DNA from: a phage
DNA length: 64,000 nucleotides
Reading direction: 5' to 3' (one strand)
Sequence record: NC_042307.1
The notes beneath the pieces are model-generated. The model made no database searches. It was not told the DNA's origin and worked only from the letters and a program-made list of their open reading frames with translations. Numbering within the stretch: position 1 is the stretch's first letter; each line of letters opens with the position of its first letter. Below, piece by piece: positions 5,432 to 63,960 of the stretch. The position numbers and the translations under genes were made by a program.

Positions 5432-5884
5432 ATGTCATTCACACAGCAAGAACTTTTAGATAACTTCCGGTATGAAGAGGGTAAGTTATTTAGAACTACA
5501 GGAAGAAATGCAGGGAAAGAATGTTGTGTTTCTACGGGTAACGGATATTATCGTATATCTCTAGGGAATAGGACTATGCTTCGGCATAGAGCAATATTTT
5601 TAATGCATCATGGATACTTACCTGATTTAGTAGACCATGTGAATACTATAAAAGGTGATGATCGTATTGAAAATCTTAGAGAGCAGACAGTATCCGGTAA
5701 TCTAAGAAATATCAAATATAAGAAAGGAATGCATGTTTACCCTTCTGGTAGTAAGAACTGGCAAGTGGTATTTACTATTAACCGTAAACGTATAGTTAAA
5801 GGAACATATGACAACTATGAGGTTGCATGTTCTATGGCCAAGATGTTTAGAGGTCAATTATACGGTAGGGAATCAATCCAGTAA
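5432..5884 (+). CDS. HNH homing endonuclease
   Basis: N-terminus MSFTQQELLDNFRYEEGKLF parallels MITQERLKELFDYSPETGEF of other HNH copies; HNH core HRAIFLMHHGYLP...DHVN; start set at ATG 5432 preceded by GGAGGTGAGG. Confidence 0.7.
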   Translation: MSFTQQELLDNFRYEEGKLFRTTGRNAGKECCVSTGNGYYRISLGNRTMLRHRAIFLMHHGYLPDLVDHVNTIKGDDRIENLREQTVSGNLRNIKYKKGMHVYPSGSKNWQVVFTINRKRIVKGTYDNYEVACSMAKMFRGQLYGRESIQ

Positions 5885-5892
5885 AATTTCAT

Positions 5893-5935
5893 TTGCAAGG
5901 GAGTATTATTTTATAGTATAATATTCCCATAAATG
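5893..5935 (+). promoter_or_regulatory. T5 early-type promoter upstream of long leader
   Basis: ttgcaa (5893-5898), 18-bp spacer, tataat (5917-5922), then cataaatgagagac downstream box. Confidence 0.5.
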
Positions 5936-6417
5936 AGAGACATTAGTAAAAATTGATTTTGCTAATTTTTCTTGTTTACAATCCGCGATACGGAACAGTT
6001 AGGCTGCCCCATTAAGGGTTGTTTTAACTATTACTAGTGTTTATATTGCATTAGTTAATCTTCAATTAAGTGATCTGTGTACCCTGAATTCGGAAAGGTA
6101 AATCCAAACCGTGCATATTTAGCTCGTTATATAGGCAGAGTTTTATATGGGGGTGCGAACGAAAAGAGCAGCGAATGGCGGCACGTACAGTAGTCACCTA
6201 CCAATAGGATAGTGAGGACAAATAGAATCGGCTTAGCGGCCAATGACCTAGGTTCTATTCTGTATATGAGCGAAGAGAGCACAGCACTGAGATATGATAA
6301 CTTATTCATATTGTTTGATGATAATTGATGTTTACGTAAATAGTAGTAATAGTTGTTCTATTCTTTCTGAATAGTCCTAAAGAAAAGATTTCGATTAACC
6401 AACACAGGAGTATTGTT

Positions 6418-9207: not shown

Positions 9208-9442
9208 AAAATGGGAAACAAGGAAGTTTCCAGTAAAAGAACGTAAAGTTCCTGTTTATGATACTTCGGAGAAGCTATGTAGGGTGGTTCCTGCTAGACT
9301 AGCATCCATAAATGGCATAGGCGCATGGTTGCTAAAGCAGAGAAAGCAAAGCATATCATTACGTATATCTTTTGAGTTAGACCAAATCTATAGAGAATTG
9401 GGAGAATTGATTAAAGAAAATGATAACACAGGAAGAGGTTAG
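9191..9442 (+). CDS. hypothetical protein
   Basis: ORF track 9182..9442; likely start at ATG 9191 overlapping upstream gene end. Confidence 0.4.
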   Translation: MTVKNKKWETRKFPVKERKVPVYDTSEKLCRVVPARLASINGIGAWLLKQRKQSISLRISFELDQIYRELGELIKENDNTGRG

Positions 9443-9878
9443 AGAGGCTTTTGAGTATGATCCTGAAACAGGCCATCTTAAATGGAAGAAAACAAGACAG
9501 AAGAGTCTAGTAGGTAAGTTTGCCGGTGGTAAACATAAAGGGTATATAAGAATAGGGTTTAAGCGTAGGCACTGGGGAGAACATCAGCTGGTATTCTTAT
9601 ATCATAAGGGGTACATACCAGAAGAGATAGACCACAAAAACAGGATTAAAGATTGCAACTTTATAGAGAATTTAGAAGACTCCAATAGATCTAAGCAAAT
9701 GCACAATATTAATGTACGTAAAGACAATAAGTTGGGTGAGCCTAATATCTACATGAGGGGCGATAAATATTGTGTGCTAATGCAGAAAGGATCTATTCGT
9801 AAGTACCAGCAGTGCAATACTATAGAAGAGGCTAAAAAAGTTAGGGCTAATTTTAAGTCCGAACTCTATCCAAATTAA
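9420..9878 (+). CDS. HNH homing endonuclease
   Basis: MITQEEVREAFEYDPETGHLKWKK N-terminus and HNH core LVFLYHKGYIPEEIDHKN. Confidence 0.75.
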   Translation: MITQEEVREAFEYDPETGHLKWKKTRQKSLVGKFAGGKHKGYIRIGFKRRHWGEHQLVFLYHKGYIPEEIDHKNRIKDCNFIENLEDSNRSKQMHNINVRKDNKLGEPNIYMRGDKYCVLMQKGSIRKYQQCNTIEEAKKVRANFKSELYPN

Positions 9879-9946: not shown

Positions 9947-10651
9947 ATGGCTGGTTCTCGCAGAAAGAAACATATCCATGAAATCCCGGATGAAGTCTTT
10001 AAAAAAGTTATAGAGCATCTGGAAAACGGTGGTACTAAGAAAGCAGCATGCGAAATGCTCGGCGTATCATCCAACCCAACTATGGAAAGGATGATAGAAG
10101 AGTGGCAAGACCGTCAGATCCAAGTTGCCGAGATGAAGAAAAAGAAACGTGGTACACTCATTGAAGGTATTGAGTTGGCCAACGTTATTGAACAGTATCT
10201 ATCTGGTGATTCTTTTGAAGAGATTGCCGATCGTAATTACCGCTCCGTAGCAATGGTTAAATCTGTTCTGGAACGCTATGGTGCTCTGCTTCGTTTGAAT
10301 GATATTGTAGATCCATTGAATCCACCAATTATTCCTGATGATGCTGTGGCAGAAGAATTTGAGGTTGGAGAACTAGTTTGGGTTCCTGGATACCAGTGTA
10401 TCGGTGAAATCAAAAAAGCAATGGATAATCCTGTTGGTTGTTACCGTGTCTGGCTTCTATCAGAAGGCAAACAACAGAACGTTCATTATATGAATTACGA
10501 GCTGGCTTCTGTTAAACATCTGGAAAAGTTAGGGGTTGACGTAAAATCCCTGGGGTACAAGTGGACTCGTGAAGAAGTTATTACGTTGATTAACGAAGCT
10601 GTTAAGGCTGCCTTGAAACTTGATAAAGAAAAAGGAAAACGCCGTGAGTAG
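9947..10651 (+). CDS. putative HTH DNA-binding protein
   Basis: 234 aa directly downstream of PN25-like promoter; helix-turn-helix-like segment TKKAACEMLGVSSNPTMERM. Confidence 0.6.
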   Translation: MAGSRRKKHIHEIPDEVFKKVIEHLENGGTKKAACEMLGVSSNPTMERMIEEWQDRQIQVAEMKKKKRGTLIEGIELANVIEQYLSGDSFEEIADRNYRSVAMVKSVLERYGALLRLNDIVDPLNPPIIPDDAVAEEFEVGELVWVPGYQCIGEIKKAMDNPVGCYRVWLLSEGKQQNVHYMNYELASVKHLEKLGVDVKSLGYKWTREEVITLINEAVKAALKLDKEKGKRRE

Positions 10652-10895
10652 ACTAACTGATTTACTTAAAGATGGGGAAGTAAAAACACTATATCGTAGA
10701 AGCTGGGATAACGATAATAACGGCTTAGTGTTACTAACTTTAGATGCTGACTCGGATGTAGCTACTCAGCATACCTGGGTAGCCGGTAACTATCCATATA
10801 GCGAGGTTGTTTCATTAACAGTATGCGAAGCTATTGCAGATGATTGGGAGGTTGCCAGCATCGAGGATATGCTCGCTGTTGGCCTGGTGGAGTAA
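10644..10895 (+). CDS. hypothetical protein
   Basis: ORF track 10620..10895; probable GTG start at 10644 preceded by AAAGGAAAA. Confidence 0.45.
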   Translation: MSRLTDLLKDGEVKTLYRRSWDNDNNGLVLLTLDADSDVATQHTWVAGNYPYSEVVSLTVCEAIADDWEVASIEDMLAVGLVE

Positions 10896-11409: not shown

Positions 11410-11445
11410 TTTTAGATAAATCCACCAACAAAAGGAACTACAGTT

Positions 11446-11601
11446 ATGACCAAAGCTGAAATTATCGCACAATGTGAAAAATTTGGTGAGTTTTATCTTC
11501 ATTACGAGAAACTTCGTCAGAAAGGAACCACGTACCTTCAGGGTACGATGGAATTTGATCCAGCTCAGGATAAATACCTGGCTGAGCGTATTAAACAGTG
11601 A
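11446..11601 (+). CDS. small protein (51 aa), possibly 5' part of a frame-interrupted gene
   Basis: ATG 11446 preceded by AAAAGGAAC; coding-like codon usage; ends ...AERIKQ-TGA; coding-like sequence continues in +1 frame to 11743. Confidence 0.4.
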   Translation: MTKAEIIAQCEKFGEFYLHYEKLRQKGTTYLQGTMEFDPAQDKYLAERIKQ

Positions 11602-11602
11602 A

Positions 11603-11743
11603 CGTATTCGTAAAGCGAAAGATGATGAAATCCTTGTCTTCTCTCGTACTAATGATAGCTTCCGTTTTATTCCTGTCGAGAAAGTTCGTCGTGTGACTAG
11701 CCTCCAATCAGAGTTAGATCGTGCTTCTCCAGTAGGCCGATAA
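11603..11743 (+). other. coding-like segment in +1 frame relative to 11446..11601 (ERIRKAKDDEILVFSRTNDSFRFIPVEKVRRVTSLQSELDRASPVGR), no start codon
   Basis: Strong codon bias, open frame lacking ATG/RBS, immediately after the TGA of the upstream small ORF. Confidence 0.35.
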
Positions 11744-13363: not shown

Positions 13364-14143
13364 ATGAAAATCGAAATTCCAACACAATGTCCCTCTTGTG
13401 GTTCTAAGCTAGATCTTGTCAACGGACAATTATTCTGTCGTAATAAGTCCAACTGTCCAGCGCAATCAAGTAAGTTAATTGAGAACTTCTGTACAAAAAT
13501 GAAGTTAAAGGGCTTTGGCCCAAAAACTATTGAGAAGCTGGAGCTGACGAAGATTTCAGAACTATTTTACCTAACCGAAGAAGATTTGGTTAGAGCCGTG
13601 GGTAGCAAGGTTGCCGCTAAGTTAATTAGCGAATTAAATACTAAAGTTCGCGGAGACATTGACTTTGGTTCAGTTCTCGGTTCTTTAGGAATCACTCTAA
13701 TTGGAGAGGTTGCAGCAAAGAAATTATCCCAAAATTGCACTAGCTTCCATGATGTGAAGGCTGACGGCAAGGCTGGAGAAAATTACAAAGCCTGGCTAAA
13801 TTCCCCACAAGGCAAGGATGTTATTGAACTACCGTGGAAATTTTCAACTGGTATTAAGGGCACTAAAGCTGACGTCATCATTACAGATGAATTAGTTGCC
13901 CAGCCAAATGGAATCGCGGTATGTATTACCGGATCTTTGCAAGATTTTGCAAATAGAACGGATGCAACAAACTATTTAGAAAGTCTAGGGTATACGGTTA
14001 AGAAATCCGTTACCAAAGACGTCAAATACCTAATCTGTGAGGATGAATCGAAGCGTTCCTCCTCATCTTATAAGAAAGCCGAAACGAATGGGATAGAAAT
14101 CCTGTCGATTAAAGAACTATTGGAGAAAAATAATAATGTCTAA
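13364..14143 (+). CDS. NAD-dependent DNA ligase, C-terminal fragment (Zn-finger, HhH, BRCT-like; 'subunit B')
   Basis: C4 Zn-finger CPSCGSKLDLVNGQLFCRNKSNCPAQ near N-terminus, then helix-hairpin-helix-like GFGPKTIEKL; ATG 13364 with AAGGAAG RBS. Confidence 0.8.
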   Translation: MKIEIPTQCPSCGSKLDLVNGQLFCRNKSNCPAQSSKLIENFCTKMKLKGFGPKTIEKLELTKISELFYLTEEDLVRAVGSKVAAKLISELNTKVRGDIDFGSVLGSLGITLIGEVAAKKLSQNCTSFHDVKADGKAGENYKAWLNSPQGKDVIELPWKFSTGIKGTKADVIITDELVAQPNGIAVCITGSLQDFANRTDATNYLESLGYTVKKSVTKDVKYLICEDESKRSSSSYKKAETNGIEILSIKELLEKNNNV

Positions 14144-14903
14144 ACTGAACTGGAACGTAGAAGGTGTAACCGAGTCTCTGAAAGCAAAAGCCACTGCTCT
14201 GGGTGTTGCTGTAATCTCTCAAGAACAAGTAGCTGCTATCGCTGCTGAACTGGCTGCTGAAACTGGCAAAGATGTTACTGCTCGCTCTGTTGGCTCTAAG
14301 CTGCGTAAAGAAGGTTTTGAAGTACAAAAAGCTAACGAAGTACAGAAATCCCCGTGGACTCCTGAGCAGGAAGCTGAACTGGTTGATTTCCTGAACGCTC
14401 ATGCTGGTCAGTATACCTATGCTGAAATCGCTGCTGCTGTAGCTGGTGGTCAGTTCGGTGCTAAACAGGTACAGGGTAAGATCCTGAGTCTGGAAATGAC
14501 CGCTTCTGTTAAACCAACTGAAAAAGCTGCTGCTGTTCGTTCCTTCACTCCGGATGAAGAAACTGATTTTGTTAATCAGGTTGTTGCTGGAGCTACTATT
14601 GAAGCTATCGCTGCTCACTTCGGTCGCAATATTAAGCAGATCCGTGGTAAAGCTCTGAGCCTGCTTCGTGAAGGTCGTATCGCCGCTATGCCGGTACAGG
14701 AAACTTCAAGTGCTAAAACTCGTGAAGATCTGTTAGAAGGTCTGGATCTGGCTAACATGACTGTTGCTGAGATCGCTGAGAAAACTGGTAAGTCTGAGCG
14801 CGGTGTTAAATCTATGCTGTCTCGTCGTGGTCTGGTTGCTAAGGACTATGATGGTGCCGCTAAGCGTGCTAAACTGGATGCAAAAGCTGCGGCTGCTGAA
14901 TAA
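14136..14903 (+). CDS. highly expressed Ala-rich protein with four tandem HeH/Rho_N-like repeats (putative DNA-binding protein)
   Basis: Four repeats of ~40 aa (e.g. IAAELAAETGKDVTARSVGSKLRKEGF; MTVAEIAEKTGKSERGVKSMLSRRGL); strongly host-optimal codon usage. Confidence 0.7.
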   Translation: MSKLNWNVEGVTESLKAKATALGVAVISQEQVAAIAAELAAETGKDVTARSVGSKLRKEGFEVQKANEVQKSPWTPEQEAELVDFLNAHAGQYTYAEIAAAVAGGQFGAKQVQGKILSLEMTASVKPTEKAAAVRSFTPDEETDFVNQVVAGATIEAIAAHFGRNIKQIRGKALSLLREGRIAAMPVQETSSAKTREDLLEGLDLANMTVAEIAEKTGKSERGVKSMLSRRGLVAKDYDGAAKRAKLDAKAAAAE

Positions 14904-14920
14904 TCTGGTAAATTAAACCT

Positions 14921-14953
14921 AAGGGGAGGGGGCTATGCTCCTTCCCCTTTTTG
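14921..14953 (+). terminator. rho-independent terminator
   Basis: aaggggagg / ccttcccctt hairpin (one G-U position) followed by ttttt. Confidence 0.55.
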
Positions 14954-14985
14954 CATTTAGAAGGCACGAAAGCGTGCAAAGGAGA

Positions 14986-16458
14986 ATGACCTTGTTTAAC
15001 GTGCAAGCTGTAGTGTTGAAGATGCTTCTAGCTTCCGAACAGAAGCAAATAGCATTGGAAACATTCTCAAAACTGCATAAAGATCATTTTAATGACGCTT
15101 TCTCCTCAATTTACCAAGCCGTCCAGAATTATTATAAAAAATATAACACAATGCCGTCCATTGACGCACTGATGCTTGAGGCTAATAGGAACGCCCGCCT
15201 TTCTCAAGCTCTAGTCGTTTTAGCTAACACTCAAATTCCAGAAGTTAGCATGGAACAGGCACTTGAAGTCCTAGAGGCCGAGTATACGCAGGATTTATTC
15301 CTGAAGCTTCTAGAAACAGACGTGCTTCAAGATTTAACAATGCTGGATCAGGGAGAAATTCTTAACCGAGTTGCCTCCCTTCACTTAAAATTAGAAGAGA
15401 AAGTAACGAATACTGGAAAAGTATTCAACGCAGATAACATGCGTATTTTCCAGAGAGAAGAAGATACCAAACTGAACTTAATCGCTCTTGGTATTTGTAA
15501 TGAGTTCGACGCTCAAATTGGTTTAGCTCGCACAGAAACGTTACTGCTTGGTGGTTGGCGTGGTACTGGTAAATCCATTATCTGTTCAAACATACAGGTT
15601 CAGCAATATTTGAATGGAGATATTGCTCCATACTTCTCAATTGAGATGAAAGAACATGAAGTATTTAGACGTAATCTAGCCATGTTAGCTGGTGTATCAG
15701 CACTAGCAATGCGTAATAATACTCTAGAAGGTGCAGCTCTGTTGAGATTAGCCAGAACTAGAGCTAGAATGTTTAACGGTGGTGAAGAGCTTTTCGATAA
15801 CTTCGTTAAACAATACACAATGGCTAAGATGAGTGATTTCTACGATATGGAAAGTAAGCTAATAGAAGGATATGAGCTACATACTCCTATGATTATTGTT
15901 TATGATCCTGAGCTGTCTATTACAACAGTTGACGTAGAATTAAATAAATTAGTTGCTAGATATGGGGATAAAGTTACAGTAGCTTTACTTGACTATATTA
16001 ACCAAACCCGACTTCCAGATTCTAAAACCATTGATATGTATGACTGGAAAGAACAGATGGTTGTTAGCTCGTCTTTCAAATCCCTCTGCCAGAAACATAA
16101 CGTGGCTGGTGTAGCTCCTTACCAGATTGATCAAGATGGTAGAACACGTATGTCAAAAGGGATTCTTGATTCCGCAGACATGGCTGCTAATCTTAATGCT
16201 GCAAAAGCTGATAATGGTCAAGGTGCTATTATGTTTGACTTCGTTAAGACCCGTTCTTCTGATAGCGTGAAGTTTATGCCTAAAATGAACTGGGAAACCC
16301 TGCGGATGGATAACACTACCAACCTAGCAATGGAAGATATATCTCAAATGGAAGCTGAGTTCGTTATCCCTATTGAGAAGGATAAGCCAGCTCAATCTAA
16401 ACGTGCTAAGAAAGACAAAGCTGAAAATTCAACAGGTGAACAGGCCAGCGATATATGA
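14986..16458 (+). CDS. replicative DNA helicase (DnaB-like P-loop ATPase)
   Basis: Walker A LLLGGWRGTGKS; start moved from track 14935 (inside terminator hairpin) to ATG 14986 preceded by AAAGGAGA. Confidence 0.6.
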   Translation: MTLFNVQAVVLKMLLASEQKQIALETFSKLHKDHFNDAFSSIYQAVQNYYKKYNTMPSIDALMLEANRNARLSQALVVLANTQIPEVSMEQALEVLEAEYTQDLFLKLLETDVLQDLTMLDQGEILNRVASLHLKLEEKVTNTGKVFNADNMRIFQREEDTKLNLIALGICNEFDAQIGLARTETLLLGGWRGTGKSIICSNIQVQQYLNGDIAPYFSIEMKEHEVFRRNLAMLAGVSALAMRNNTLEGAALLRLARTRARMFNGGEELFDNFVKQYTMAKMSDFYDMESKLIEGYELHTPMIIVYDPELSITTVDVELNKLVARYGDKVTVALLDYINQTRLPDSKTIDMYDWKEQMVVSSSFKSLCQKHNVAGVAPYQIDQDGRTRMSKGILDSADMAANLNAAKADNGQGAIMFDFVKTRSSDSVKFMPKMNWETLRMDNTTNLAMEDISQMEAEFVIPIEKDKPAQSKRAKKDKAENSTGEQASDI

Positions 16459-16988
16459 TAACACAGGAACGACTAAAAGAACTGTTTGACTACTCCCCAG
16501 AGACTGGGGAGTTTATTAGAAAAGTATCTAGAGGCAACCAGAAAGCCGGGAGTATAGTAACTAGAAAGGATTCAAACGGTTATATAATTATCGGTATAGA
16601 TGGTAGGGATTATAAAGCCCATCGTATGGCCTTCCTATTTATGGAAAACACGTTACCTGAAAAAGTAGACCATATAAACCGTATACGAAGTGATAATCGA
16701 TGGTGTAATCTAAGAGACGCCACAGCCCAGGAAAATAGTAGAAATAAAACCGCATGTAGTAAGTCTGGATATTTGGGAGTTGCTTGGGATATAGAAAAAC
16801 AAAGATGGAGAGTTCAAGTAAGAGACTCTAATAGCACTCTTAAAAATGGTGGCAGATTTAAGTATGAAGAGCTAGAGCTAGCTGTAAATTCAGCAAATAT
16901 ATTAAGGACTAAGTTACATGGAGAACGTGCTGTTATAGAATTTTTTGATACATCTAATTATCCTTCACTGGAGGAGTTAAATTCATGA
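16455..16988 (+). CDS. HNH homing endonuclease
   Basis: MITQERLKELFDYSPETGEF..., HNH core YKAHRMAFLFMENTLPEKVDHINR; ATGA overlap with flanking genes. Confidence 0.8.
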   Translation: MITQERLKELFDYSPETGEFIRKVSRGNQKAGSIVTRKDSNGYIIIGIDGRDYKAHRMAFLFMENTLPEKVDHINRIRSDNRWCNLRDATAQENSRNKTACSKSGYLGVAWDIEKQRWRVQVRDSNSTLKNGGRFKYEELELAVNSANILRTKLHGERAVIEFFDTSNYPSLEELNS

Positions 16989-17875: not shown

Positions 17876-17937
17876 TATATTGGTAAGTTAGAGAAGAAAC
17901 ACTGAAGTTATACTTACTTACCAAAAGGAGACTAAAT

Positions 17938-22338: not shown

Positions 22339-22339
22339 C

Positions 22340-22873
22340 ATGATAACTCAACAAAGATTAAAAGAATTACTAATATATGATCCAGATTCTGGCCACTTTA
22401 TTAACAAGGTGTCCAGGGGCAGAGGAGGTAAAATTGGGGCTATTGCTGGAAGTCCTGATAAAGATGGATATATAATCATAGGTATAGATAGGAAATCTTA
22501 TAAAGCCCATCGCTTAGCCTTCTTGTACATGGAAGGCTATATGCCTACTGAAGTAGACCACGATAATAGAATACCTTATGATAATAAATGGAGTAACTTA
22601 AAAGATTCTTCTCATTCGGAAAATATGAAAAACCGTAACCCTTATAGTAAATCTGGTTATAAAGGAGTTACGTGGAATAAGGTTAAGAAGAAATGGCAAG
22701 TACAAGTGTGTAGGTCAGATGGTTCTACAGTTTATGGTGGGTTATTCCCTTATGAAGAATTAGAGTTAGCTATAAATAAAGCTAATGAACTTAGAGTACA
22801 GCATCTAGGTATGGATTCCAGGCAAGAACTATTTAAAGGATATATTTGCCGACGTGAGGACTTAGATAAGTAA
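22340..22873 (+). CDS. HNH homing endonuclease
   Basis: MITQQRLKELLIYDPDSGHF..., YKAHRLAFLYMEGYMPTEVDHDNR. Confidence 0.8.
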   Translation: MITQQRLKELLIYDPDSGHFINKVSRGRGGKIGAIAGSPDKDGYIIIGIDRKSYKAHRLAFLYMEGYMPTEVDHDNRIPYDNKWSNLKDSSHSENMKNRNPYSKSGYKGVTWNKVKKKWQVQVCRSDGSTVYGGLFPYEELELAINKANELRVQHLGMDSRQELFKGYICRREDLDK

Positions 22874-22881
22874 AATTGCAT

Positions 22882-23011: not shown

Positions 23012-23038
23012 ATATACATAAATTGATGAGAGACAAAA

Positions 23039-24206: not shown

Positions 24207-24737
24207 ATGAGAAATAAGCTATATTCCTTATTTTTGGAAGACCCTAAAAAATTCATTTTATTAGTAAATAAATTCAGAGAAAGATTTTCCTATGATCCTG
24301 AGTCCGGGCTACTCTCTAGGAAAATAGGAACGGGTGGTCAGTTACCAGGATCTATAGTAGGCACGGATAATGGAAAAGGATATTTAAGAACCTCATTTAA
24401 TAAGGAGCAGTATCTTGTACATTTAATTATTTATGCCATGCAGACTAATGAAATGGCAGAAGTAGTAGATCACAAAGACTTAGATAAGAAGAATAATAGA
24501 TGGAGTAATCTAAGACCAACTAATAAATCAGGTAATGAAAGAAACACAAGCGTAAGATCTAATAGTACCACAGGTGTTAAAAATGTATATTGGATACCTG
24601 GGAGACATAAGTATAGGGTTCAGTTTAAAATCCACGGAGAAACAAAATACTTTGGATATTATGATACTATTCAAGAAGCAGAAGTAGTAGCTGATAGGGA
24701 ACGTAGGCGACTACACGGAGAATTTGCCAGATCATGA
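24207..24737 (+). CDS. HNH homing endonuclease
   Basis: N-terminal FSYDPESGLLSRK and HNH core YLVHLIIYAMQTNEMAEVVDHKD; ATGA overlap with downstream nuclease gene. Confidence 0.75.
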   Translation: MRNKLYSLFLEDPKKFILLVNKFRERFSYDPESGLLSRKIGTGGQLPGSIVGTDNGKGYLRTSFNKEQYLVHLIIYAMQTNEMAEVVDHKDLDKKNNRWSNLRPTNKSGNERNTSVRSNSTTGVKNVYWIPGRHKYRVQFKIHGETKYFGYYDTIQEAEVVADRERRRLHGEFARS

Positions 24738-25711: not shown

Positions 25712-27530
25712 GACACTAAAATTTAGTAACGTTATGTCTTACGGTAAGGACATCGTAATTCATTTCGATAAGAATCCAGTTACTCAACTAATTGGGGGCA
25801 ATGGGCTAGGGAAGTCCACTATTGCTACGGTTATCGAGGAGTTGTTTTATAACAAGAACTCTCGAGGTATCAAGAAGGATGCATTGTTCTCTTGGAATGC
25901 CCCTAAGAAAGAATACGATATGCACGCTTACTTCTCAAAAGATGAAGATGAGTATGAACTGCATAAAGTAGTTAAATCAACTGCTAAAGTTACACTCATT
26001 AAGAATGGAGAAGATATTAGTGGGCATACGGCAACCCAAACATATAAGATGATTGAAGAGATTATGGGTGGTGACTTTCAAACATTCACCAAACTAATTT
26101 ATCAATCAGTGGGTTCCAACCTAGATTTTCTAAAAGCAACGGATGCAACACGTAAGGCTTTTCTTGTTAACTTGTTCAATCAAGAGCAATACAAAGAAAT
26201 GTCGGAAACTATTAAGGCTGACCGTAAAGAAATAGCAAATACCCTAAATAATTTGCAGGGTCAGATGGCTGTAATTACGAAAATCCTTAATGGGAAAAAT
26301 AATCTAGGAACTTTGCAGGAACCTGTAGAAGTACCGGAGTTTGATGAAGAGCCATTAGCACAAGAACTTACTGAATCGAAAATTAAGGCGGCATTAGCCA
26401 AGTCACAAGAGGCTAATATTACTAAACTCCGTAATTTGGACAAAGCTGTACAAGTTGCCGAACAATCTTTCGAGCCTTTCAAAAATTTCCCTGCGCCCAC
26501 TGACCAATCTGAAGAGATCTCAAGTGTTACGCGTGACTTAACGATTGTTACCTCACGTGCGGGAGAAGTCAAGAAACGTTATCAGAAGTTTAAGCAAGAG
26601 GCTTCAAATACTGAATGTCCTACTTGTGGTACGCATCTTGATACAACTGCTGCTCAAAAAGCAATGGATATGGCTAGAACAGAATATGATCCTCTGTTTA
26701 AAGAGAAACAATCTCTCGAAGCTACATTGGAGCAGTTAAAGAAAGAACAACTCGAGTACGCTGCGTATACTAGAGCTAAGGATGCTTTAGATAAGGCAGT
26801 AGCAGCTAGAGACGAGTTCAAAAATTCAATGAGTGATGCTTCTTTTGAAGAACTCAATGTGCAAATCCTACAGGTGCAAATACGACAATTAGAACAGGAA
26901 ATCGCTGATGGACGTTCTAAAGTTGCAATTGCCAAAGAGCATAATGCAAATGTCGAATTAGCCAATGCAAAATATAAAGCAAAGCTAGAACAGATTGAGA
27001 AAGCAGAAGCAGAAATGACTGAGATTACTTCCAAACTTGATGGAGTAGCCGAAGCTGTAGCTGATCTTGATATTCTGATCGCTGCATTGAAAAATCTGGT
27101 AGGATATAAACTAGAGCATAGTGTGAAAGTATTTGAGGAATTGATTAATAAATATCTTTCTATTATGACTGGTGGTAAGTTCGCACTTGGATTTGAACTT
27201 GATGAAACTAAATTACAAGTAGTAATCTTCAATGATGGAAACCGTACCAGTATGGAGAACTGCTCTACTGGTCAGCAAAGTAGAATTAACCTAGCAACTC
27301 TGTTAGCAATTCGAATGCTGTTAACATCTATTAGTAAAGTTAATATTAATCTTCTGTTCCTTGACGAAGTTATTAGCTTTATTGATACGAAAGGACTTGA
27401 TACTCTCGTTGAATTATTAAATGAGGAAGATAGTCTGAATTCTATCATTGTTTCTCATGGGCACTCCCATCCGCTGGCACATAAGATTACTGTCAAAAAA
27501 GATGCAGAAGGATTTTCCTATTTAGAATAA
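25692..27530 (+). CDS. Rad50/SbcC-like ATPase (T5 D13-like)
   Basis: Walker A GGNGLGKST, long coiled-coil, zinc-hook CPTCG, D-loop/Walker B LLFLDEVISFID; start set at ATG 25692. Confidence 0.8.
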   Translation: MSKITIKTLKFSNVMSYGKDIVIHFDKNPVTQLIGGNGLGKSTIATVIEELFYNKNSRGIKKDALFSWNAPKKEYDMHAYFSKDEDEYELHKVVKSTAKVTLIKNGEDISGHTATQTYKMIEEIMGGDFQTFTKLIYQSVGSNLDFLKATDATRKAFLVNLFNQEQYKEMSETIKADRKEIANTLNNLQGQMAVITKILNGKNNLGTLQEPVEVPEFDEEPLAQELTESKIKAALAKSQEANITKLRNLDKAVQVAEQSFEPFKNFPAPTDQSEEISSVTRDLTIVTSRAGEVKKRYQKFKQEASNTECPTCGTHLDTTAAQKAMDMARTEYDPLFKEKQSLEATLEQLKKEQLEYAAYTRAKDALDKAVAARDEFKNSMSDASFEELNVQILQVQIRQLEQEIADGRSKVAIAKEHNANVELANAKYKAKLEQIEKAEAEMTEITSKLDGVAEAVADLDILIAALKNLVGYKLEHSVKVFEELINKYLSIMTGGKFALGFELDETKLQVVIFNDGNRTSMENCSTGQQSRINLATLLAIRMLLTSISKVNINLLFLDEVISFIDTKGLDTLVELLNEEDSLNSIIVSHGHSHPLAHKITVKKDAEGFSYLE

Positions 27531-50044: not shown

Positions 50045-51256
50045 TTAATCTCCCTCGGTGGAACCTTTAGGTCTACCACCTTCTTGACCAGATACACCTG
50101 TTGCAGAACCAGCGACGTTAGCAGGAATACGGATCTTATTCATCTGCTCATCATCTAAAGGCTCAAGGTTCAGCTCTGAACGAGCTTCGTTACCGGTTAT
50201 AATACCATTATTAACCAATGAGGTTAAATGTTTAGCCTCTGCTTCTTTATCTGGTGTTAATGCTGCGACTTCCTTAGTATTAGGAGTGATCTTATAACCA
50301 AAAAAGAAAGTAAGAGAACTAGTCAGTTTGTTCAGCATAGGAATGATAGTCATATAATAGAACAATTCGATGTTTGGTCGAATGTTCGCATTATTACCAC
50401 CATCAAGCAGTACTTGCGGAACTCCAAAGGCTAGACAAATAGATTTATTAAATCCTTCGATGTCTTCCTTAAAGTCTAGATCTTTAAAAGAGGATATTTG
50501 GGAGTACGGTTTAGCTTTCATACCACCATCTAGAATCAGGACAGAAGACTGACCCGTACTAGGATTATAATCGAGTTGTAATTCTTCTTGTTTACGCTCA
50601 CGCAATTTCTTGTTCAGGATTTCATCCGTCTCAAGAATAAGACCAATCACGGTTCCGTTATCGAGGAATTTCTCTTTAAAGTTAAGCATCTTAGAACGCT
50701 TCTCAAGAGAATCAATAACAGTAGCAACACGAGATTGTCCAGAAATTTGAGAGTTTGTGCCACACACGTAACTGTTATCCTTTATAAAGATAATCTCATC
50801 TACGCGATAGTCTATCTGATTATTAAATGTAAATTTTTTGATAAACTTATTGGCATCTGCCTCGACCTGCATAAGAGCAGCCGGGACGTGGTAAAGCGAT
50901 GTGCCATCCCAATAGATGTATGCACAACCTTCAAAAAGTAGGTCAGTGACTACAAGTCTACGGAATGTGCTTATATCCATGAATGGATTAGGTCGTACAT
51001 TTAAGAGAGTGTCTAGAGTCTTTGTTTTGACGCCATTAGCGTACGTAACAATATTATATTTATCTCCGACAGTATAAGAACACTCCGCCGCACTATCTAT
51101 AACCATATTAGCAGTTCGATTGAGAATCTCAATCTTGCTATAGGCTTGTCCAGTGGTAAAAGGCTTACGGTTAGTGCGATGACTAACTGGTTCCATGTCT
51201 CTTATAATACGTTGACCCGGATTTAGCTTTTCAGTAATCCAGCTTTTAAAACCCAT
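50045..51256 (-). CDS. portal protein
   Basis: 403 aa between terminase region and decoration/protease genes; synteny and size. Confidence 0.65.
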   Translation of the reverse strand: MGFKSWITEKLNPGQRIIRDMEPVSHRTNRKPFTTGQAYSKIEILNRTANMVIDSAAECSYTVGDKYNIVTYANGVKTKTLDTLLNVRPNPFMDISTFRRLVVTDLLFEGCAYIYWDGTSLYHVPAALMQVEADANKFIKKFTFNNQIDYRVDEIIFIKDNSYVCGTNSQISGQSRVATVIDSLEKRSKMLNFKEKFLDNGTVIGLILETDEILNKKLRERKQEELQLDYNPSTGQSSVLILDGGMKAKPYSQISSFKDLDFKEDIEGFNKSICLAFGVPQVLLDGGNNANIRPNIELFYYMTIIPMLNKLTSSLTFFFGYKITPNTKEVAALTPDKEAEAKHLTSLVNNGIITGNEARSELNLEPLDDEQMNKIRIPANVAGSATGVSGQEGGRPKGSTEGD

Positions 51257-51708
51257 TATAAGAACCTTGCGAATCCTGATTTTGTTTCAGTCTTGACTTG
51301 TGTCTTTTCTTGAGGATTCTGTATTTTGTCTTTCTGCTTTTGAACCCACACTTTTTGCTTATTAGCAGAAAATAAAGGAGGTTCTTTTGTGTAAACCTTA
51401 TGTAATAGTTGGTGATGGTGCTGGCACAATGTTACCACGTCCCTAACTAACTCATGCTCATATTTCTTGTAGAATGCTTCCCTATTTGAAAGGACGATAT
51501 TCTCATCAGTGAAATCCAGCTGGAGTTCTTTAGCAAATTTTTTTATTAGCTGAGATATAGTATGATAGTGATGAAGTTCTAGGTCTTCACTACTACCACA
51601 TATAGCACAGCAACCATCCTTACTATACCTAGATTTTATACCATCCCTCATTATGGAAATGGCATCACGTTTGTACTTAGTATTAGTGGCCATACTCCTC
51701 CAATCCAA
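51256..51708 (-). CDS. HNH endonuclease (terminase-associated type)
   Basis: 150 aa; CAICGSSEDLELHHYH...CQHHHQLLHKV HNH/Zn motif. Confidence 0.7.
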   Translation of the reverse strand: MDWRSMATNTKYKRDAISIMRDGIKSRYSKDGCCAICGSSEDLELHHYHTISQLIKKFAKELQLDFTDENIVLSNREAFYKKYEHELVRDVVTLCQHHHQLLHKVYTKEPPLFSANKQKVWVQKQKDKIQNPQEKTQVKTETKSGFARFL

Positions 51709-52357
51709 AGCTATTTAGAAAGATTACTATATCCTCAGGAGCAACATTAAAAAATTCCGTGCTTCCTGTAAAATTAGAAAACCCACAGTTTTTATTATAA
51801 TATTCTCTGTGAACTTCCTTTTCTAAATCTAAAGCAGTCTCTCTATCTGGCAGATGATACATGGTGAACAAGTACAGGTCAGAAAATCCAGATTCTCTTT
51901 TAACTTCATTCAACCGTTTCTCGGGATATAAGCTTATGCCTACTTTAGTACCGCTAGAGAAGGACATGATATAGAGGAATCCACCATTCTCCCACTTAAG
52001 AGAACAATAAGGACATCTCTTACCTTGAGTCAATCCATCTAAGGTAATGAAACAGTCATGCCCATTATTGCAGCGTAGATGTAGTTTTGTTTTAGCATTA
52101 GTATAGCTGCTTAACAGAGTATACCCTATATTAGATATTCTGTTACTAACTTCATCTAACGATATTGTATTATTGGAGCAGTGTGGACAACCTCTCCTCA
52201 TATGGAGTATAGAATGTGGTGTTGCTTCCCAAACGTGTGCTCTCTGGCATTTAAATACTGTTTTTGTACGTTGGTTTACATATTCACCGACAATTTGGAT
52301 TCCACGATCAGCTAATCTAATATTTATATCTTTTATTGTTAGCTTTTGTCGACCCAT
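51683..52357 (-). CDS. T5orf172/GIY-YIG-like domain protein with duplicated Zn-ribbon-like motifs
   Basis: Start moved to ATG (MGRQKLTIKD) with AGGAG RBS; RGCPHCSNN and RCPYCS motifs; C-terminal FLYIMSFSSGTKVGIS...TEFFNVAP homologous to ORF at 1..297. Confidence 0.55.
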   Translation of the reverse strand: MGRQKLTIKDINIRLADRGIQIVGEYVNQRTKTVFKCQRAHVWEATPHSILHMRRGCPHCSNNTISLDEVSNRISNIGYTLLSSYTNAKTKLHLRCNNGHDCFITLDGLTQGKRCPYCSLKWENGGFLYIMSFSSGTKVGISLYPEKRLNEVKRESGFSDLYLFTMYHLPDRETALDLEKEVHREYYNKNCGFSNFTGSTEFFNVAPEDIVIFLNSFGLEEYGH

Positions 52358-52473
52358 AGAATCTCCTACACCCATGTAGAGCATTAATTTTTCTTGTTTA
52401 CGTTCTATTATGGGAGAAGTTCTCCCGATCAATGAATATAGTATACATAATCGTATCGAATTTGTAAAGGGGA

Positions 52474-52514
52474 TTTTAAAATACAGGAATGGGATACCAA
52501 CTGAGTAGTATCCC
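52474..52514 (-). terminator. hairpin downstream of terminase large subunit gene (possible terminator)
   Basis: gggatac-N10-gtatccc stem followed on minus strand by auuccuguauuuu. Confidence 0.35.
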
Positions 52515-52527
52515 ATCCTATACTTAT

Positions 52528-56361: not shown

Positions 56362-56688
56362 ATGCAAGAAGATGATAAGCCCTTTCAGGAACCTCTACCA
56401 CTAGAAATGAATCCTAGGGCTAAAGCAGTTCATGATGCAGTTAACGAAATCATTCAAGACGTCATAGAAGATACAATGGAAGATGTGATGGGTACATCCT
56501 TCATACTAGAAGAATCCGGCTTTGATGAAGTAATGGATATTATTGGGACAGTCGTTATGGTTCGTGCAATATGTAGAATTTTTCAAATACCAGGCTTACA
56601 GGAGAAGCAGCGTGCTAACGCAAGAAAGATTAAAAGAAGTGCTAAGGTACGACCCGAATACCGGTATATTTGTAAATTTACAAAGTAG
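56362..56688 (+). CDS. hypothetical acidic protein
   Basis: 108-aa ORF with no obvious RBS; C-terminal part overlaps HNH start in another frame. Confidence 0.35.
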   Translation: MQEDDKPFQEPLPLEMNPRAKAVHDAVNEIIQDVIEDTMEDVMGTSFILEESGFDEVMDIIGTVVMVRAICRIFQIPGLQEKQRANARKIKRSAKVRPEYRYICKFTK

Positions 56689-57146
56689 AGGAAACAAAAA
56701 AGCAGGTAGTATAGCAGGTACATCGAGATAAAGATGGCTATATAGTAATTCGTATTGACAGACTACCTTATAGAGCACATAGACTGGCCTTCTTATACAT
56801 GGAAGGATATATGCCCGTAGAAGTGGACCATGATAATAGAGTTAGAGATGATAATAGGTGGGATAATCTATTTGATGCATCTAGGCAGGAAAATATGCGT
56901 AATAGACCTTCTTGGGGTATATCTGGTTACCTAGGAGTATCCTGGAATAAATTAAAACAAAAATGGCAAGTTAGAGTACAAGATAGTAAAGGTAATCAAA
57001 TATCTGGAGGATTCTTTCCCTACCAAGATCTAAAGTTAGCGGTGGAGAAGGCTAATACGATGCGCGTACAGTTTCATGGACCACGTGCAGTTCAGGAGTT
57101 ATTTAAGGGATACAAAGTTTCTAGTGTGGAGGAGTTAAATAAATGA
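56612..57146 (+). pseudogene. HNH homing endonuclease gene interrupted by a +1 frame change near 56715-56730
   Basis: GTG 56612 (GGAGAAG RBS) encodes VLTQERLKEVLRYDPNTGIF...AGSIAGTSR-stop (56729-56731); HNH core continues in next frame from 56727 (RDKDGYIVIRIDRLPYRAHRLAFLYMEGYMPVEVDHDNR...) to 57146. Confidence 0.7.
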
Positions 57147-57774: not shown

Positions 57775-58509
57775 TTATGCAACTTTTAGTTTCTCAATAT
57801 ATTGTTGCGGGCTGCAACTATATTCTGCGCGTTCTTCCTCGGTCATACCTTCCCAACATAATTGCAGGCGGTCGGCTAGGAACTGATAATCATTATCATC
57901 CTCAAGAGATTCATCAATAAAGGTTTCACCTATCAATGTAACCCCAATCGATAGAATATCGTTTATAGCTTGCGCGTCCAGCGTTTTAAACCCATATGAT
58001 GCCGCCGCCGCCAATACTCCTTTATGATCGTCGATCATCGTGAAATCAGCGTTCGGATATAGTTGTTTAAATAACTCAAAGTAATGGCTTTTATAAATAG
58101 CGTCCTTACTGTGGTATATTTCGCTAACCTTATCAGCCTCAAAATATTTGTGTAGTGTATCGCGGGAAAATACACGGATATTACTATCACCACGACCGCG
58201 CAACCCTTGTTTACGCAAATAATAATAGTCCGACTTGCTCATTAGTCGAGCGGTGCAAATAATGTTTAAAGTATTTGCGTCATTCATGCACTGGCGCATA
58301 TATTCAACTAATGGTAATAATGAATCCTGCATTATTAAATGATGTTTACACGCTTCATTTTTATACTTATTTAAATCTAAATTCCCGTTATCATCAAAGC
58401 AAGGCGCTACACGATGGAAAGAATTTATAATCGTTCCGTCTAAATCCCAAATCATAACGCGGGAAATATGCGGGAAAGCGCGGGTAATATTCATATTGAC
58501 TTTATTCAT
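57775..58509 (-). CDS. dmp: HAD-family 5'-deoxyribonucleotidase (T5 Dmp-like)
   Basis: 244 aa; HAD motif I VMIWDLDGTIINSF; size and location next to A1-like gene match T5 pre-early dmp by recollection. Confidence 0.6.
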   Translation of the reverse strand: MNKVNMNITRAFPHISRVMIWDLDGTIINSFHRVAPCFDDNGNLDLNKYKNEACKHHLIMQDSLLPLVEYMRQCMNDANTLNIICTARLMSKSDYYYLRKQGLRGRGDSNIRVFSRDTLHKYFEADKVSEIYHSKDAIYKSHYFELFKQLYPNADFTMIDDHKGVLAAAASYGFKTLDAQAINDILSIGVTLIGETFIDESLEDDNDYQFLADRLQLCWEGMTEEERAEYSCSPQQYIEKLKVA

Positions 58510-59003: not shown

Positions 59004-59513
59004 TTAATAAGGGATATTAAATTCTTTACACTTTGATTTAACCCATTCTAAAAGAATAGATAAATCATAATTGCCTTTTGAAACATATTTATTTGTTATA
59101 GGGTTTTTAATTTTTGCCCTGTAATATTCTCCCGCTATGGGATCAACTTTATCAAGATAAATATATTTCGGTAGTTTATTACGCCTTTTATAATCACTCT
59201 TATTTGTCATATTAACAGCATGAGTAACTAGGCGTAAATTATTTATATCGTTGTTAACGGGGTAAGAAATTATTTTATGATCTATATCTAAATCAGGGTT
59301 AATTTCTTTATTAAATAAAACCCAAATTAAACGATGAGCTTTATATAATTCACCATTAATCATTACATCATAATAGCCTGTCTGATTTAATGTTCCCGCT
59401 ACACTTCCAGCTTTCACACCGGGCTTACTTATTTTCCATCGTAAAAATGATGGGCTAGATTCATCATAATAAACATTCTCGTTAACTTCATTAAAATCTA
59501 TTTCTTTTGCCAT
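59004..59513 (-). CDS. HNH homing endonuclease
   Basis: YKAHRLIWVLF...DIDHKI...INNLRLVTHAVN HNH motif; C-terminus homologous to decayed copy at 63500..63960. Confidence 0.7.
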   Translation of the reverse strand: MAKEIDFNEVNENVYYDESSPSFLRWKISKPGVKAGSVAGTLNQTGYYDVMINGELYKAHRLIWVLFNKEINPDLDIDHKIISYPVNNDINNLRLVTHAVNMTNKSDYKRRNKLPKYIYLDKVDPIAGEYYRAKIKNPITNKYVSKGNYDLSILLEWVKSKCKEFNIPY

Positions 59514-62973: not shown

Positions 62974-63431
62974 TATCGTCGATTCCTTATAATGTATAAG
63001 TTTACCGCCGATAGGCTTTAAGATGTTCCCTAGTTTTTAAAGAGCATGGCGGTAAACTTCCCCGCCGTTGTAGTCTGGCCTTTCGTTTCCGTCTTGCCGT
63101 CCTACGAGATAAATAATAGGTTATTCCCGAAAATGGCGCAAGCGTATTTTTGTAAAGAAACGTAAAGAAAACCACTACCCGCAAACGTCCAGCGACTGCC
63201 TAAAATTTAATGAAACGGGCGCGAATACCATAAAACCTAGCAGGTTGGCAAGTAATTTTTTCATTTATATCTGCTCTAGGGTACTTGATTTTTCTAGAAT
63301 CCATCAGGTGAGGCGATCGGCATAGTGGCAATGCACTTGCCTAGCTTTTCCTTTGAGGCGCTTAGAATGCGTTCTAGACGCCTTAAATTGGACTTAACAA
63401 ATATTTAACAAAAGCAAAAATGAAATAAATA

Positions 63432-63464
63432 CGAAAAACCCCTTGACTTATAAAAATCAAGGGG
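63432..63464 (-). terminator. rho-independent terminator downstream of decayed HNH gene
   Basis: ccccttga-N10-tcaagggg hairpin followed on minus strand by ttttt. Confidence 0.6.
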
Positions 63465-63499
63465 CATTGCGTTAATTTATTAAATAAAATATTTGACTT

Positions 63500-63960
63500 T
63501 TAAATATTATACTGAATGCCATGCTCTGCACATTTTTTGATCACCCAATCTAGTAACGTAGGTAAATCATAACCAGACTTACTAATGCGCCGCTTACTAT
63601 TAGGAATCCTAATTTGAGCCAGCAAATAATCACGTCCGTTACTATCACGCTTGCCATTACTACTACGATAAATAAAACGAGGTAAATCATTATCACGCTT
63701 ACTATTAACACGATTATTATTATTCTGCATATGATCAACTAAACGTAAGTTTTTAATGTTATTATTTAGCCGGTTATTATCTATATGATCAATTAATAAG
63801 GCGCTATCTATTTCACCATTGAAATATTACCCATATGATTCGAATTCCACTGTAAACAGCGGTAACCATAACCCTAAGGGCATAATAACCAACTGGTAAT
63901 TAATACATTCCCGGCCAATTTTTAACGCGGCCTTTTTAATTTTCCTCCGCGGGTTATTTT
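63500..63960 (-). pseudogene. decayed HNH homing endonuclease paralog (multiple frameshifts/stop)
   Basis: Track ORF 63500..63730 is only the C-terminus (SGYDLPTLLDWVIKKCAEHGIQYNI, cf. NYDLSILLEWVKSKCKEFNIPY of 59004..59513); HNH core (IDHIDNNRLNNNIKNLRLVDH) continues upstream without Met; GYYALRVMVTAVYSGIRIIWVIF lies in another frame ending in a stop. Confidence 0.6.

Follow-up and report, generated by a model that had tools for sequence, protein, structure and literature searches.

Eight predicted HNH_3 homing endonuclease genes and a separate SciA-type nicking endonuclease gene in a T5-like phage genome

Two Kinds of His-Me-Finger Nuclease Genes

A total of nine His-Me-finger nuclease genes, seven of them intact, were identified in the 64,000-nt stretch of phage DNA that was analyzed (sequence record NC_042307.1, hereafter the window), and they fall into two distinct kinds: eight genes of the HNH_3 family and one sciA gene (table 1). 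Based on sequence comparisons, the eight HNH_3 genes are predicted to be I-HmuI-like free-standing homing endonuclease genes. The account in which these eight genes are homing genes, the sciA product is a nonmobile nickase, and the two disrupted HNH_3 copies have undergone little real decay is, taken as a whole, considered highly probable. The window covers the replication and late regions and the right pre-early region of a Tequintavirus (T5-like) genome, and its overall identity is 97% to phage SHSML-45, 96.4% to Shivani, and 93.7% to T5.

The eight HNH_3 loci consist of six intact genes, one gene with a 1-nt frameshift and one gene that is garbled at the window edge (individual genes are referred to by their first coordinate, the garbled one as the 63.5 kb copy). 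All six intact genes score above the curated cut-off of Pfam PF13392 (E = 3.9e-6 to 2.9e-11), as do both disrupted copies, and all six are matched by phrog_99 "HNH endonuclease" (E = 7.8e-37 to 1.7e-59). A six-frame scan of the window with an HMM trained on the copies that it contains revealed no HNH_3 sequence beyond the eight loci, and none of 20 additional small ORFs (21 with 20498-20995) proved to be an HNH gene in Pfam scans. The initial annotation had counted ten HNH genes, eight of them intact, but listed only seven intact and two broken copies, and these nine are the number found. Each of the seven genes listed as intact is a real ORF located where it had been placed. Their treatment as a single HNH group holds for the six that are Pfam HNH_3 genes but not for the gene at 51256, which belongs to another family (PF26848, SciA).

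Table 1. Coordinates of predicted nuclease genes and of a predicted nick site in the window.
Feature	Coordinates	Strand	Details
Predicted HNH_3 homing endonuclease gene, intact	5432..5884	+	150 aa; after T5.107 homologue; Pfam E=2.9e-11
Predicted HNH_3 homing endonuclease gene, intact	9420..9878	+	152 aa; between T5.110-like ORF and D2; Pfam E=2.3e-10
Predicted HNH_3 homing endonuclease gene, intact	16455..16988	+	177 aa; between D6 replicative helicase and primase; Pfam E=3e-10
Predicted HNH_3 homing endonuclease gene, intact	22340..22873	+	177 aa; directly after D10 SF2 helicase; Pfam E=1e-8
Predicted HNH_3 homing endonuclease gene, intact	24207..24737	+	176 aa; between D11 and D12 (SbcD/Mre11-like); Pfam E=1.6e-7
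Predicted HNH_3 homing endonuclease gene, intact	59004..59513	-	169 aa; pre-early/terminal-repeat region, between dmp side and A1; Pfam E=3.9e-6
HNH_3 gene, one inserted T at 56723	56612..57146	+	GTG start, 177 codons if repaired; two-frame HMM hits
HNH_3 gene, 5' third garbled, runs off window	63503..64000	-	Pfam HNH_3 E=1.9e-9 on 63503-63826
Predicted sciA nicking endonuclease gene	51256..51693	-	145 aa; PDB 9qgv/9qgx E=5e-76; PF26848
Predicted SciA major nick site 5'-G|GCGCAGG-3', inside D13	26490..26497	-	regex R/GCGCRGG plus T5 context
T5orf172 endonuclease gene, T5.154 homologue	51683..52516	-	Pfam T5orf172 E=3.6e-8
T5orf172 endonuclease gene, C-terminal part, cut by window start	1..297	+	Pfam T5orf172 E=5.9e-12

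Relationships and Domains of the HNH_3 Genes

The HNH_3 paralogues within the window share 21-35% amino acid identity, with closer subgroups at 52-60% (the trio 16455, 22340, and 56612) and 48%. At 60% identity at most, a recent intragenomic duplication is ruled out, and the alignment that the initial annotation had suggested for dating duplications points to old paralogues instead of recent copying. Orthologues at the same site in other phages are 96-100% identical: the 5432 gene corresponds to Shivani gp134 (99% on the amino acid level), the 24207 and 59004 genes are 100% identical to Shivani gp112 and gp073, and the 16455 gene has its orthologue in T5 hegJ (P-TflX; 96% on the amino acid level, same site). 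The mobile genes are better conserved than their flanks (99.4-100% compared with 89.7-97.5%), as illustrated by the 22340 gene, which shows 99.4% DNA identity to Shivani while the flanking D10 gene shows 89.7%.

Residues H56, D72, H73, N85, and N97 are invariant in an alignment of the window's HNH_3 copies, and the closest solved structure to the HNH_3 profile is I-HmuI (1u3e, E = 1.6e-8). Most of the genes may in addition encode an AP2-like C-terminal DNA-binding part, as suggested by a match of the family profile to the AP2/ERF structure 7et4 (E = 0.0011); the Pfam AP2 model itself gave a weak match in one copy only (22340, 18.9 bits against a cut-off of 33.3).

Insertion Sites and Distribution

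The distribution of the HNH_3 genes among related phages is patchy. With presence defined as megablast coverage of at least 80% of the gene plus flanks, with duplicate RefSeq/GenBank records included in the counts and with a diverged or different HNH gene at the same site scored as absent, the gene is present in 42/439 related records for 5432, 35/464 for 9420, 70/438 for 16455, 8/440 for 22340, 28/441 for 24207, 18/438 for 59004, and 12/254 for 56612, the last of the eight counts being 6/266. Each of the six intact genes is thus found at its site in 2-16% of approximately 440 related records; T5 carries neither the 5432 copy nor a copy at the 59004 site.

Comparisons with gene-less alleles place the insertions at gene boundaries. 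The 16455 gene is an exact 530-nt insertion at an ATGA stop/start overlap (empty-site junction GCGATAT|ATGAGTAGAATAACAGAAC), and the identity of its flanks to the gene-less allele is asymmetric (296/300 on the left, 255/300 on the right). The 22340 and 24207 genes represent insertions of 554 nt and 527 nt relative to T5, the latter taking over the start of D12 and recreating an ATGA overlap, and the 9420 gene represents a 454-nt insertion relative to phage FFH1. The ATGA-type overlaps noted in the initial annotation are present on both sides of 16455 and at the 3' end of 24207 but not at 22340, which starts 1 nt past the D10 stop. The proposal that the HNH_3 genes are mobile insertions is borne out by this presence/absence polymorphism and by the exact gene-boundary sites next to essential replication genes. 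The opposite case, in which the copies are vertically inherited core genes, does not apply to the HNH_3 genes but does apply to the gene at 51256. A shared target motif at the 3' junctions of 16455 (ATGAGTAGAATAAC) and 56612 (ATGAGTAAAAATAA) was considered and rejected; the resemblance is too weak to interpret because the gene-less T5 allele differs there.

Homing could proceed as follows. During a mixed infection, the HNH_3 enzyme would nick or cut a gene-less allele near the conserved gene boundary, and recombinational repair from the gene-bearing genome would then copy the approximately 0.5 kb gene, together with some flanking sequence, into the site. The flanks would thereby become mosaic, and the distribution of the gene would be patchy among phages that are syntenic elsewhere. 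Both steps, cleavage and gene conversion, are proposed on the model of I-HmuI and the T4 Seg/Mob enzymes.

Two T5orf172 genes, which are absent from the list in the initial annotation, were also identified (46.4 bits for 1-297 and 34.3 bits for 51683-52516 against a cut-off of 20). The latter gene additionally matches Pfam MUG113, CapR, and DUF4379, encodes zinc-finger domains, is matched by an endonuclease family (phrog_681), and is absent from phage ESCO40; phage Key also has no homologue of it (PMC10194208). The gene at 1-297 is a homologue of Shivani gp141, annotated as "endonuclease" upstream of nrdD, a location where T5 has no gene. The T5orf172 genes (GIY-YIG-like) form a second class of variable endonuclease genes that is probably mobile.

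The SciA Nicking Endonuclease and Predicted Nick Sites

The ORF at 51256 had been listed as extending to 51708 on the minus strand, but the true start is the ATG at 51693. No match to its protein was found in the copy of Pfam-A that was searched, even at E = 1. The UniRef name of the protein is "Nicking endonuclease" (family PF26848), and the same title is carried by the PDB entries that it matches (table 1). It displays the motifs CxxC...HH...CxxH...H, and all of 19 homologues retain residues C30, C33, H42, H43, C91, H95, and H99. A Foldseek comparison returned the T5 "SciA(H42Q/H42A) endonuclease ... 10 bp DNA (GCGC)" at 98% identity and an rmsd of 0.8-0.9, with TM scores of 0.97-0.98 when normalized to the solved chain and 0.80-0.81 when normalized to the model (the SciA and GCGC identity of 9qgv and 9qgx is taken from the PDB titles). 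The gene is matched in all 438 of the 438 related records found, lies at the same position as T5.153, with the terminase side on one flank and the portal gene on the other, and carries the annotation "nicking site-specific endonuclease" in records including that of ESCO40. By homology, the 51256-51693 gene is assigned as sciA, a core late gene for a predicted zinc-finger His-Me/HNH-like nickase, and is neither a homing endonuclease gene nor mobile.

SciA is predicted to recognize GCGC-containing sites (R/GCGCRGG, the nick consensus of PMC3517423) and to make strand-specific nicks in T5-type virion DNA. The predicted nick site in table 1 has its T5 homologue in the "major DNA single-chain interruption" in D13 (AY543070, 78573-78574). 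A second minus-strand match to the consensus is located at 39226-39233, and the 8-mer alone is insufficient because two plus-strand matches exist as well; insufficiency of the 8-mer for nicking has also been reported (PMC3517423). GCGC is not depleted in the window (83 observed compared with approximately 93 expected from a composition estimate), and nothing can be read from the counts of RGCGC on the two strands (49 and 38).

The intact HNH enzymes had been put forward in the initial annotation as candidates for the site-specific nicking of T5-type genomes. I-HmuI nicks one strand, and as a homing endonuclease and the closest solved relative of the HNH_3 enzymes it lends this idea some appeal, as do the "minor" nicks that T5 has besides its five major ones (PMC3517423). 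However, the reference phage for these nicks is T5, in which five of the six intact HNH_3 copies are missing. The HNH_3 copies are also located in early or pre-early operons, whereas the nicks reappear late and the late region is where sciA and sciB have been mapped, as cited in PMC3517423. Furthermore, the nickase of T5 is known, with a structure determined in complex with GCGC DNA, and 51256-51693 is the orthologue in the window. Nicking of virion DNA at specific sites by the mobile HNH_3 enzymes is accordingly rated as very improbable. The nicking idea suits the 51256 gene and not the mobile genes because the former is the SciA orthologue and a core late gene, and it is this gene that represents the nickase candidate in the window. 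A combined scheme, in which HNH_3 enzymes would add strain-specific "minor" nicks on top of those of SciA in virion or replicating DNA and in which, separately, 16455, 22340, and 56612 would represent one lineage retargeted to three boundaries, is also thought to be quite improbable; if true, T5-like phages with different sets of HNH_3 genes should differ in their nick maps.

Two Disrupted HNH_3 Copies

The disruption of the 56612 copy was confirmed to be a single +1 frame change: the N-terminal part is encoded in frame 56534-56728 and the remainder in the next frame (56715-57143), and the change is caused by a single extra T at 56723 that Shivani and SB9 lack. The copy is the orthologue of Shivani gp081, and the repaired gene differs from it by six synonymous changes and one conservative V/I change, so that nothing apart from the insertion points to relaxed constraint. 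A conserved non-HNH gene carries a similar 1-nt insertion (an A) at 11599, and the likeness of the two lesions suggests sporadic base-call insertions. The lesion in 56612 appears to be either a base-call error or of very recent origin. Programmed ribosomal frameshifting could in principle exploit the arrangement of the two frames, which share an overlap of a few codons and show no other interruption, but the Shivani and SB9 orthologues are uninterrupted ORFs without the extra T, no slippery heptamer is present at GGTACATCGAGATAA, and expression would require a +1 skip without known stimulatory context. Programmed frameshifting was rejected as extremely improbable.

The 63.5 kb copy is broken as originally described, with 108 intact C-terminal codons (63503-63826, minus strand) and several frame changes and stops upstream. 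It is identical to phage PH204 over 63400-63818 (419/419) and to ESCO30 over 63450-63818 (369/369), but the following approximately 157 nt contain 21 insertions, one deletion, and approximately 14 mismatches. The garbled 5' third (63819-64000) coincides with the last approximately 180 nt of the window and is marked by insertions of 1-2 nt, and 31 out of 41 insertions into the window in an alignment of 63000-64000 repeat the adjacent base. No phage record matches the garbled tail and an exact 59-nt search of IMG/VR returned no match. The most likely explanation is poor sequence at a contig end, a reading favored because 100% identity turns abruptly into an insertion-dominated pattern. A recombination breakpoint that joins a fresh 3' part to an old, decayed 5' part would also fit, as it would likewise produce an abrupt change in identity.

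Both copies might alternatively be true pseudogenes that reflect the loss of homing endonucleases that follows fixation in the classic homing cycle. Both are indeed disrupted, truncated HNH genes exist in relatives (in this region, for example, Shivani gp067 is a fragment of 113 aa), and the T inserted at 56723 does not extend a homopolymer. Against this, the 56612 copy contains one lesion and six of its seven substitutions relative to Shivani are synonymous, and the same type of lesion is found at 11599 in a conserved nonmobile gene. In the 63.5 kb copy, zero differences in 419 nt are followed by 21 insertions and one deletion that worsen toward the window end, whereas neutral decay is expected to be spread along a gene and not to consist of insertions only. 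Genuine decay of both copies is regarded as rather unlikely; the two disruptions provide little evidence of biological decay. The snapshot of HNH gain and loss drawn in the initial annotation is upheld for gain, which is visible as polymorphism, but not for loss, for which the two "decaying" copies offer a single 1-nt lesion and an insertion pattern at the window edge. Verification of the sequence is needed before these "pseudogenes" can serve as evidence that endonuclease genes decay.

Comparison with Known Systems

Variable HNH homing endonuclease genes have already been described in T5-like phages (PMC12639943), whose genomes differ from one another mainly in their homing endonucleases (PMC10644984), and T5 encodes nine HNH enzymes (bioRxiv 10.64898/2026.04.02.716235). 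As the SciA structures are also known, the window is an ordinary one and the consequences go little beyond correct annotation, although the empty and occupied junctions could guide homing-site assays.

The T5 heg genes (hegI/P-TflIX and hegJ/P-TflX) resemble those of the window in being HNH_3 genes of approximately 150-180 codons with matching intergenic locations between essential genes, although the two phages differ in which sites are occupied. F-TflI, II, and IV of Akulenko et al. 2004 are reportedly free-standing HNH homing endonucleases of T5. The region equivalent to the window contains three HNH_3 genes in T5 (hegI, hegJ, and a pre-early gene) compared with eight in the window, and Shivani contains eleven over a somewhat larger stretch that reaches the genome end. 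The T5 hegI gene is located upstream of T5.110, on the opposite side from the 9420 copy, and the two share 26% amino acid identity. The 63.5 kb copy sits where T5 has its pre-early-region HNH gene, presumably hegG, whose product shares 62% identity with the intact protein of ESCO30.

The HNH_3 core of I-HmuI from Bacillus phage SPO1 aligns with the window's copies, including the invariant His, Asp-His, and Asn. However, I-HmuI is encoded in an intron whereas the window's genes are free-standing, and the possibly AP2/ERF-like C-terminal part of the latter would set them apart. The window's SciA is 98% identical to T5 SciA (T5.153), from which it differs by an A/V substitution, and shares its site upstream of the portal gene and its Cys/His motifs including His42, the residue that is mutated in the crystallized proteins; its family is unrelated in sequence to HNH_3. 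The T4 Seg/Mob genes have the same lifestyle, being intergenic selfish nuclease genes located between conserved genes, with a patchy distribution among relatives and flanks made mosaic by co-conversion, but the T4 Seg enzymes are of the GIY-YIG type, whereas HNH_3 is the dominant class in the window and the two GIY-YIG-like T5orf172 genes form a minor one.

Genome Context

Positions 14000-26000 of the window matched 543 records in a megablast search of the phage collection, with the best matches in Shigella phage SHSML-45 (97.0% identity) and Salmonella phage Shivani (96.4%) and with 93.7% identity to T5. Judged by these identities, the window is a portion of a Tequintavirus genome. According to the Shivani and T5 annotations, the left part contains the nrdD region followed by replication genes on the plus strand up to ~29.4 kb, the late structural genes occupy the minus strand at ~30-56 kb, and the window closes with pre-early genes, part of the right terminal repeat, from ~57.5 kb onward. 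The left part also carries a Sir2-family gene (2969-3793, +, E = 5.5e-24), two adjoining paralogues with two DUF7415 repeats apiece (4462-4890 and 4900-5292, +, Pfam E = 1.8e-33 and 3e-30), and a small open reading frame (10620-10895, +) with a faint, below cut-off match to Tad2-like Thoeris anti-defence proteins (E = 0.0099).

Inventory of the Nuclease Genes

The window encodes nine His-Me-finger genes, of which seven are intact, rather than the ten HNH genes (eight intact) counted in the initial annotation, whose own list holds seven intact and two broken genes. Six of the seven listed as intact were confirmed as HNH_3 genes (table); the seventh, at 51256, had been misclassified and is the core nickase SciA, and its reading frame (51256-51708, -) had no match in the Pfam-A copy searched. 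A hidden Markov model built from the six intact HNH_3 genes and run on all six reading frames identified two additional loci only, and Pfam scans of 20 further small open reading frames plus 20498-20995 found no other HNH genes. Besides these, the window has two T5orf172 (GIY-YIG-like) endonuclease genes that had gone unnoticed; they represent a further type of variable nuclease gene.

Nuclease genes in the window and the number of matched T5-like records that contain each HNH_3 gene
Gene	Coordinates	Strand	Evidence or remark	Present/matched
HNH_3, intact	5432-5884	+	Pfam HNH_3 above curated cut-off; phrog_99 "HNH endonuclease"	42/439
HNH_3, intact	9420-9878	+	Pfam HNH_3 above curated cut-off; phrog_99 "HNH endonuclease"	35/464
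HNH_3, intact	16455-16988	+	Pfam HNH_3 above curated cut-off; phrog_99 "HNH endonuclease"	70/438
HNH_3, intact	22340-22873	+	Pfam HNH_3 above curated cut-off; phrog_99 "HNH endonuclease"	8/440
HNH_3, intact	24207-24737	+	Pfam HNH_3 above curated cut-off; phrog_99 "HNH endonuclease"	28/441
HNH_3, intact	59004-59513	-	Pfam HNH_3 above curated cut-off; phrog_99 "HNH endonuclease"	18/438
HNH_3, disrupted (56612 copy)	56612-57146		model hits 56534-56728 and 56715-57143 (one gene, two frames)	12/254
HNH_3, disrupted (63.5 kb copy)	63503-63826	-	C-terminal fragment (model hit)	6/266
SciA	51256-51693	-	T5.153 orthologue	
T5orf172	1-297	+	clipped by window start; T5 without counterpart	
T5orf172	51683-52516	-	ESCO40 and phage Key without counterpart	

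The HNH_3 family profile matches the homing endonuclease I-HmuI (1u3e, E = 1.6e-8) and, in its C-terminal part, an AP2/ERF domain (E = 0.0011). Alignment of the copies, proposed earlier as a means of dating duplications, revealed no recent duplicates: amino acid identity is 21-35% except in one subgroup (16455, 22340, and 56612; 52-60%) and between 59004 and the uninterrupted ESCO30 gene corresponding to the 63.5 kb copy (48%). Every copy has a same-site orthologue in another phage that is 96-100% identical. The 22340 counterpart in Shivani (gp115, 23488-24042 of the comparison stretch) is a complete open frame with zero indels relative to the window yet is annotated as 333 nt, so the public entry appears to under-annotate it.

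Insertion Sites and Distribution

Each copy with 400 bp of flank on either side was compared with ~440 T5-like records, and a gene was scored as present at ≥80% query coverage, which is impossible without the gene. The counts (table) include duplicate RefSeq/GenBank entries and score a different HNH gene at the same site as absent, but the patchy distribution is unambiguous despite both effects. Of the six intact copies, only 16455 occurs in T5, where it is hegJ/P-TflX; the other five are absent there.

Junction alignments against relatives without the given copy revealed clean insertions at four sites, and the neighbors and ATGA overlaps noted initially are correct. The 16455 gene, which overlaps the D6 helicase gene on one side and the primase gene on the other through ATGA, is an exact 530-nt insertion at the ATATGA overlap of helicase stop and primase start, recreating the overlap at both sides. 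Compared with T5, 554 nt are inserted at the D10 end to give the 22340 gene, whose start lies 1 nt beyond the D10 stop. Downstream of the D11 terminator hairpin, the 24207 gene amounts to 527 inserted nt that capture the D12 start codon and supply D12 with a new start overlapping the 3′ end of 24207 through ATGA. The 9420 gene is a 454-nt insertion, and the replacements at 5432 and 59004 are more complex. Compared with saus47N, which lacks the 16455 gene, 296/300 positions are identical in the left flank and 255/300 in the right (window 16985-17300), where the inspected near-junction substitutions in the 5′ end of the primase gene fall at third codon positions. This asymmetry could mark the side of cleavage or co-conversion.

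Between the window and Shivani, the 22340 (99.4%) and 24207 (100%) genes are more conserved than D10 (89.7%), D11 (95.8%), and D12 (97.5%), as expected from recent lateral spread into mosaic backgrounds. The 1.3 kb between these two genes (22871-24213, a T5.125-like frame and D11) is 86.6% identical to T5, compared with 95.6% upstream and 92.7% downstream. A mosaic patch with a mobile nuclease gene at either end is in line with the view that exchanged segments have nuclease genes at their borders.

Disrupted Copies

Both copies described as decaying are disrupted in the record, but the reading as decay went too far. The 56612 copy contains one inserted T (position 56723) relative to the uninterrupted Shivani and SB9 genes; disregarding it, six synonymous changes and one V/I change separate it from Shivani, a pattern without any hint of relaxed constraint. 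Scanning the whole window revealed just one frame break besides those in the HNH copies, an inserted A at 11599 (within 11416-11743, +) that is extra relative to both T5 and Shivani and splits the homologue of T5.114/Shivani gp128, a conserved non-endonuclease gene, into two frames. Single-nucleotide insertions are therefore not specific to mobile genes; they may be base-call errors, and the 11599 break suggests that such errors occur sporadically in the sequence.

The 63.5 kb copy is identical to an intact PH204 gene across 63400-63818 (419/419) and, from 63450, to an intact ESCO30 gene (369/369), whereas from 63819 to the window end the alignment to the intact genes contains 21 inserted bases, one deletion, and ~14 mismatches. 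The switch at 63819 possibly reflects recombination that joined the copy to an old pseudogene. However, the differences grow toward 64000, the final 25 nt are unalignable, and across the 63000-64000 alignment 31 of 41 insertions into the window duplicate the adjacent base. This abrupt, insertion-only, and end-weighted pattern resembles a poor-quality read tail, and the last ~180 nt (63819-64000) are probably a low-quality contig end and not the product of neutral decay, so features read from them are unreliable.

SciA and Nicking

The gene at 51256, with its true start at the ATG at 51693, lies directly upstream of the portal gene and was matched in 438/438 related records found, several of which annotate the homologue as "nicking site-specific endonuclease"; its UniRef name is "Nicking endonuclease" (PF26848). 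A profile of 19 homologues with invariant CxxC, HH, C, and H residues matches PDB entries 9qgv and 9qgx (E = 5e-76; released 2026-03-25), entitled [quoted passage not shown]. The AlphaFold model (pLDDT 84.6) superposes on these structures with 98% sequence identity and with TM scores of 0.97-0.98 (normalized to the solved chain) or 0.80-0.81 (normalized to the model).

The consensus of the major T5 nicks is R/GCGCRGG, and sciA and sciB map to the late region (PMC3517423). The annotated major nick site in T5 D13 is conserved at 26490-26497 (-). Other exact RGCGCRGG matches occur at 508-515 (+), 58477-58484 (+), and 39226-39233 (-); two of the three lie on the strand that is un-nicked in T5, so a match to the 8-mer is not enough to define a SciA site. 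The suggestion that the intact HNH enzymes are candidates for T5-type nicking thus holds for this core gene and not for the mobile HNH_3 genes, which are located in early operons and mostly absent from T5.

Comparison with Known Systems

The earlier finding is correct yet routine apart from the miscount, the misclassified gene, and the over-read decay, and nothing here is new: earlier work has already named variable HNH homing endonucleases as the principal source of T5-like genome differences (PMC10644984, PMC12639943), T5 is credited with nine HNH enzymes (bioRxiv 10.64898/2026.04.02.716235), and SciA has been identified and its structure solved. By analogy with I-HmuI and T4 Seg/Mob, the HNH_3 enzymes would act during co-infection by nicking or cutting alleles without the gene, which recombinational repair would then copy in. 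SciA, as in T5, would introduce its nicks late in infection, in one strand and at GCGC sites.
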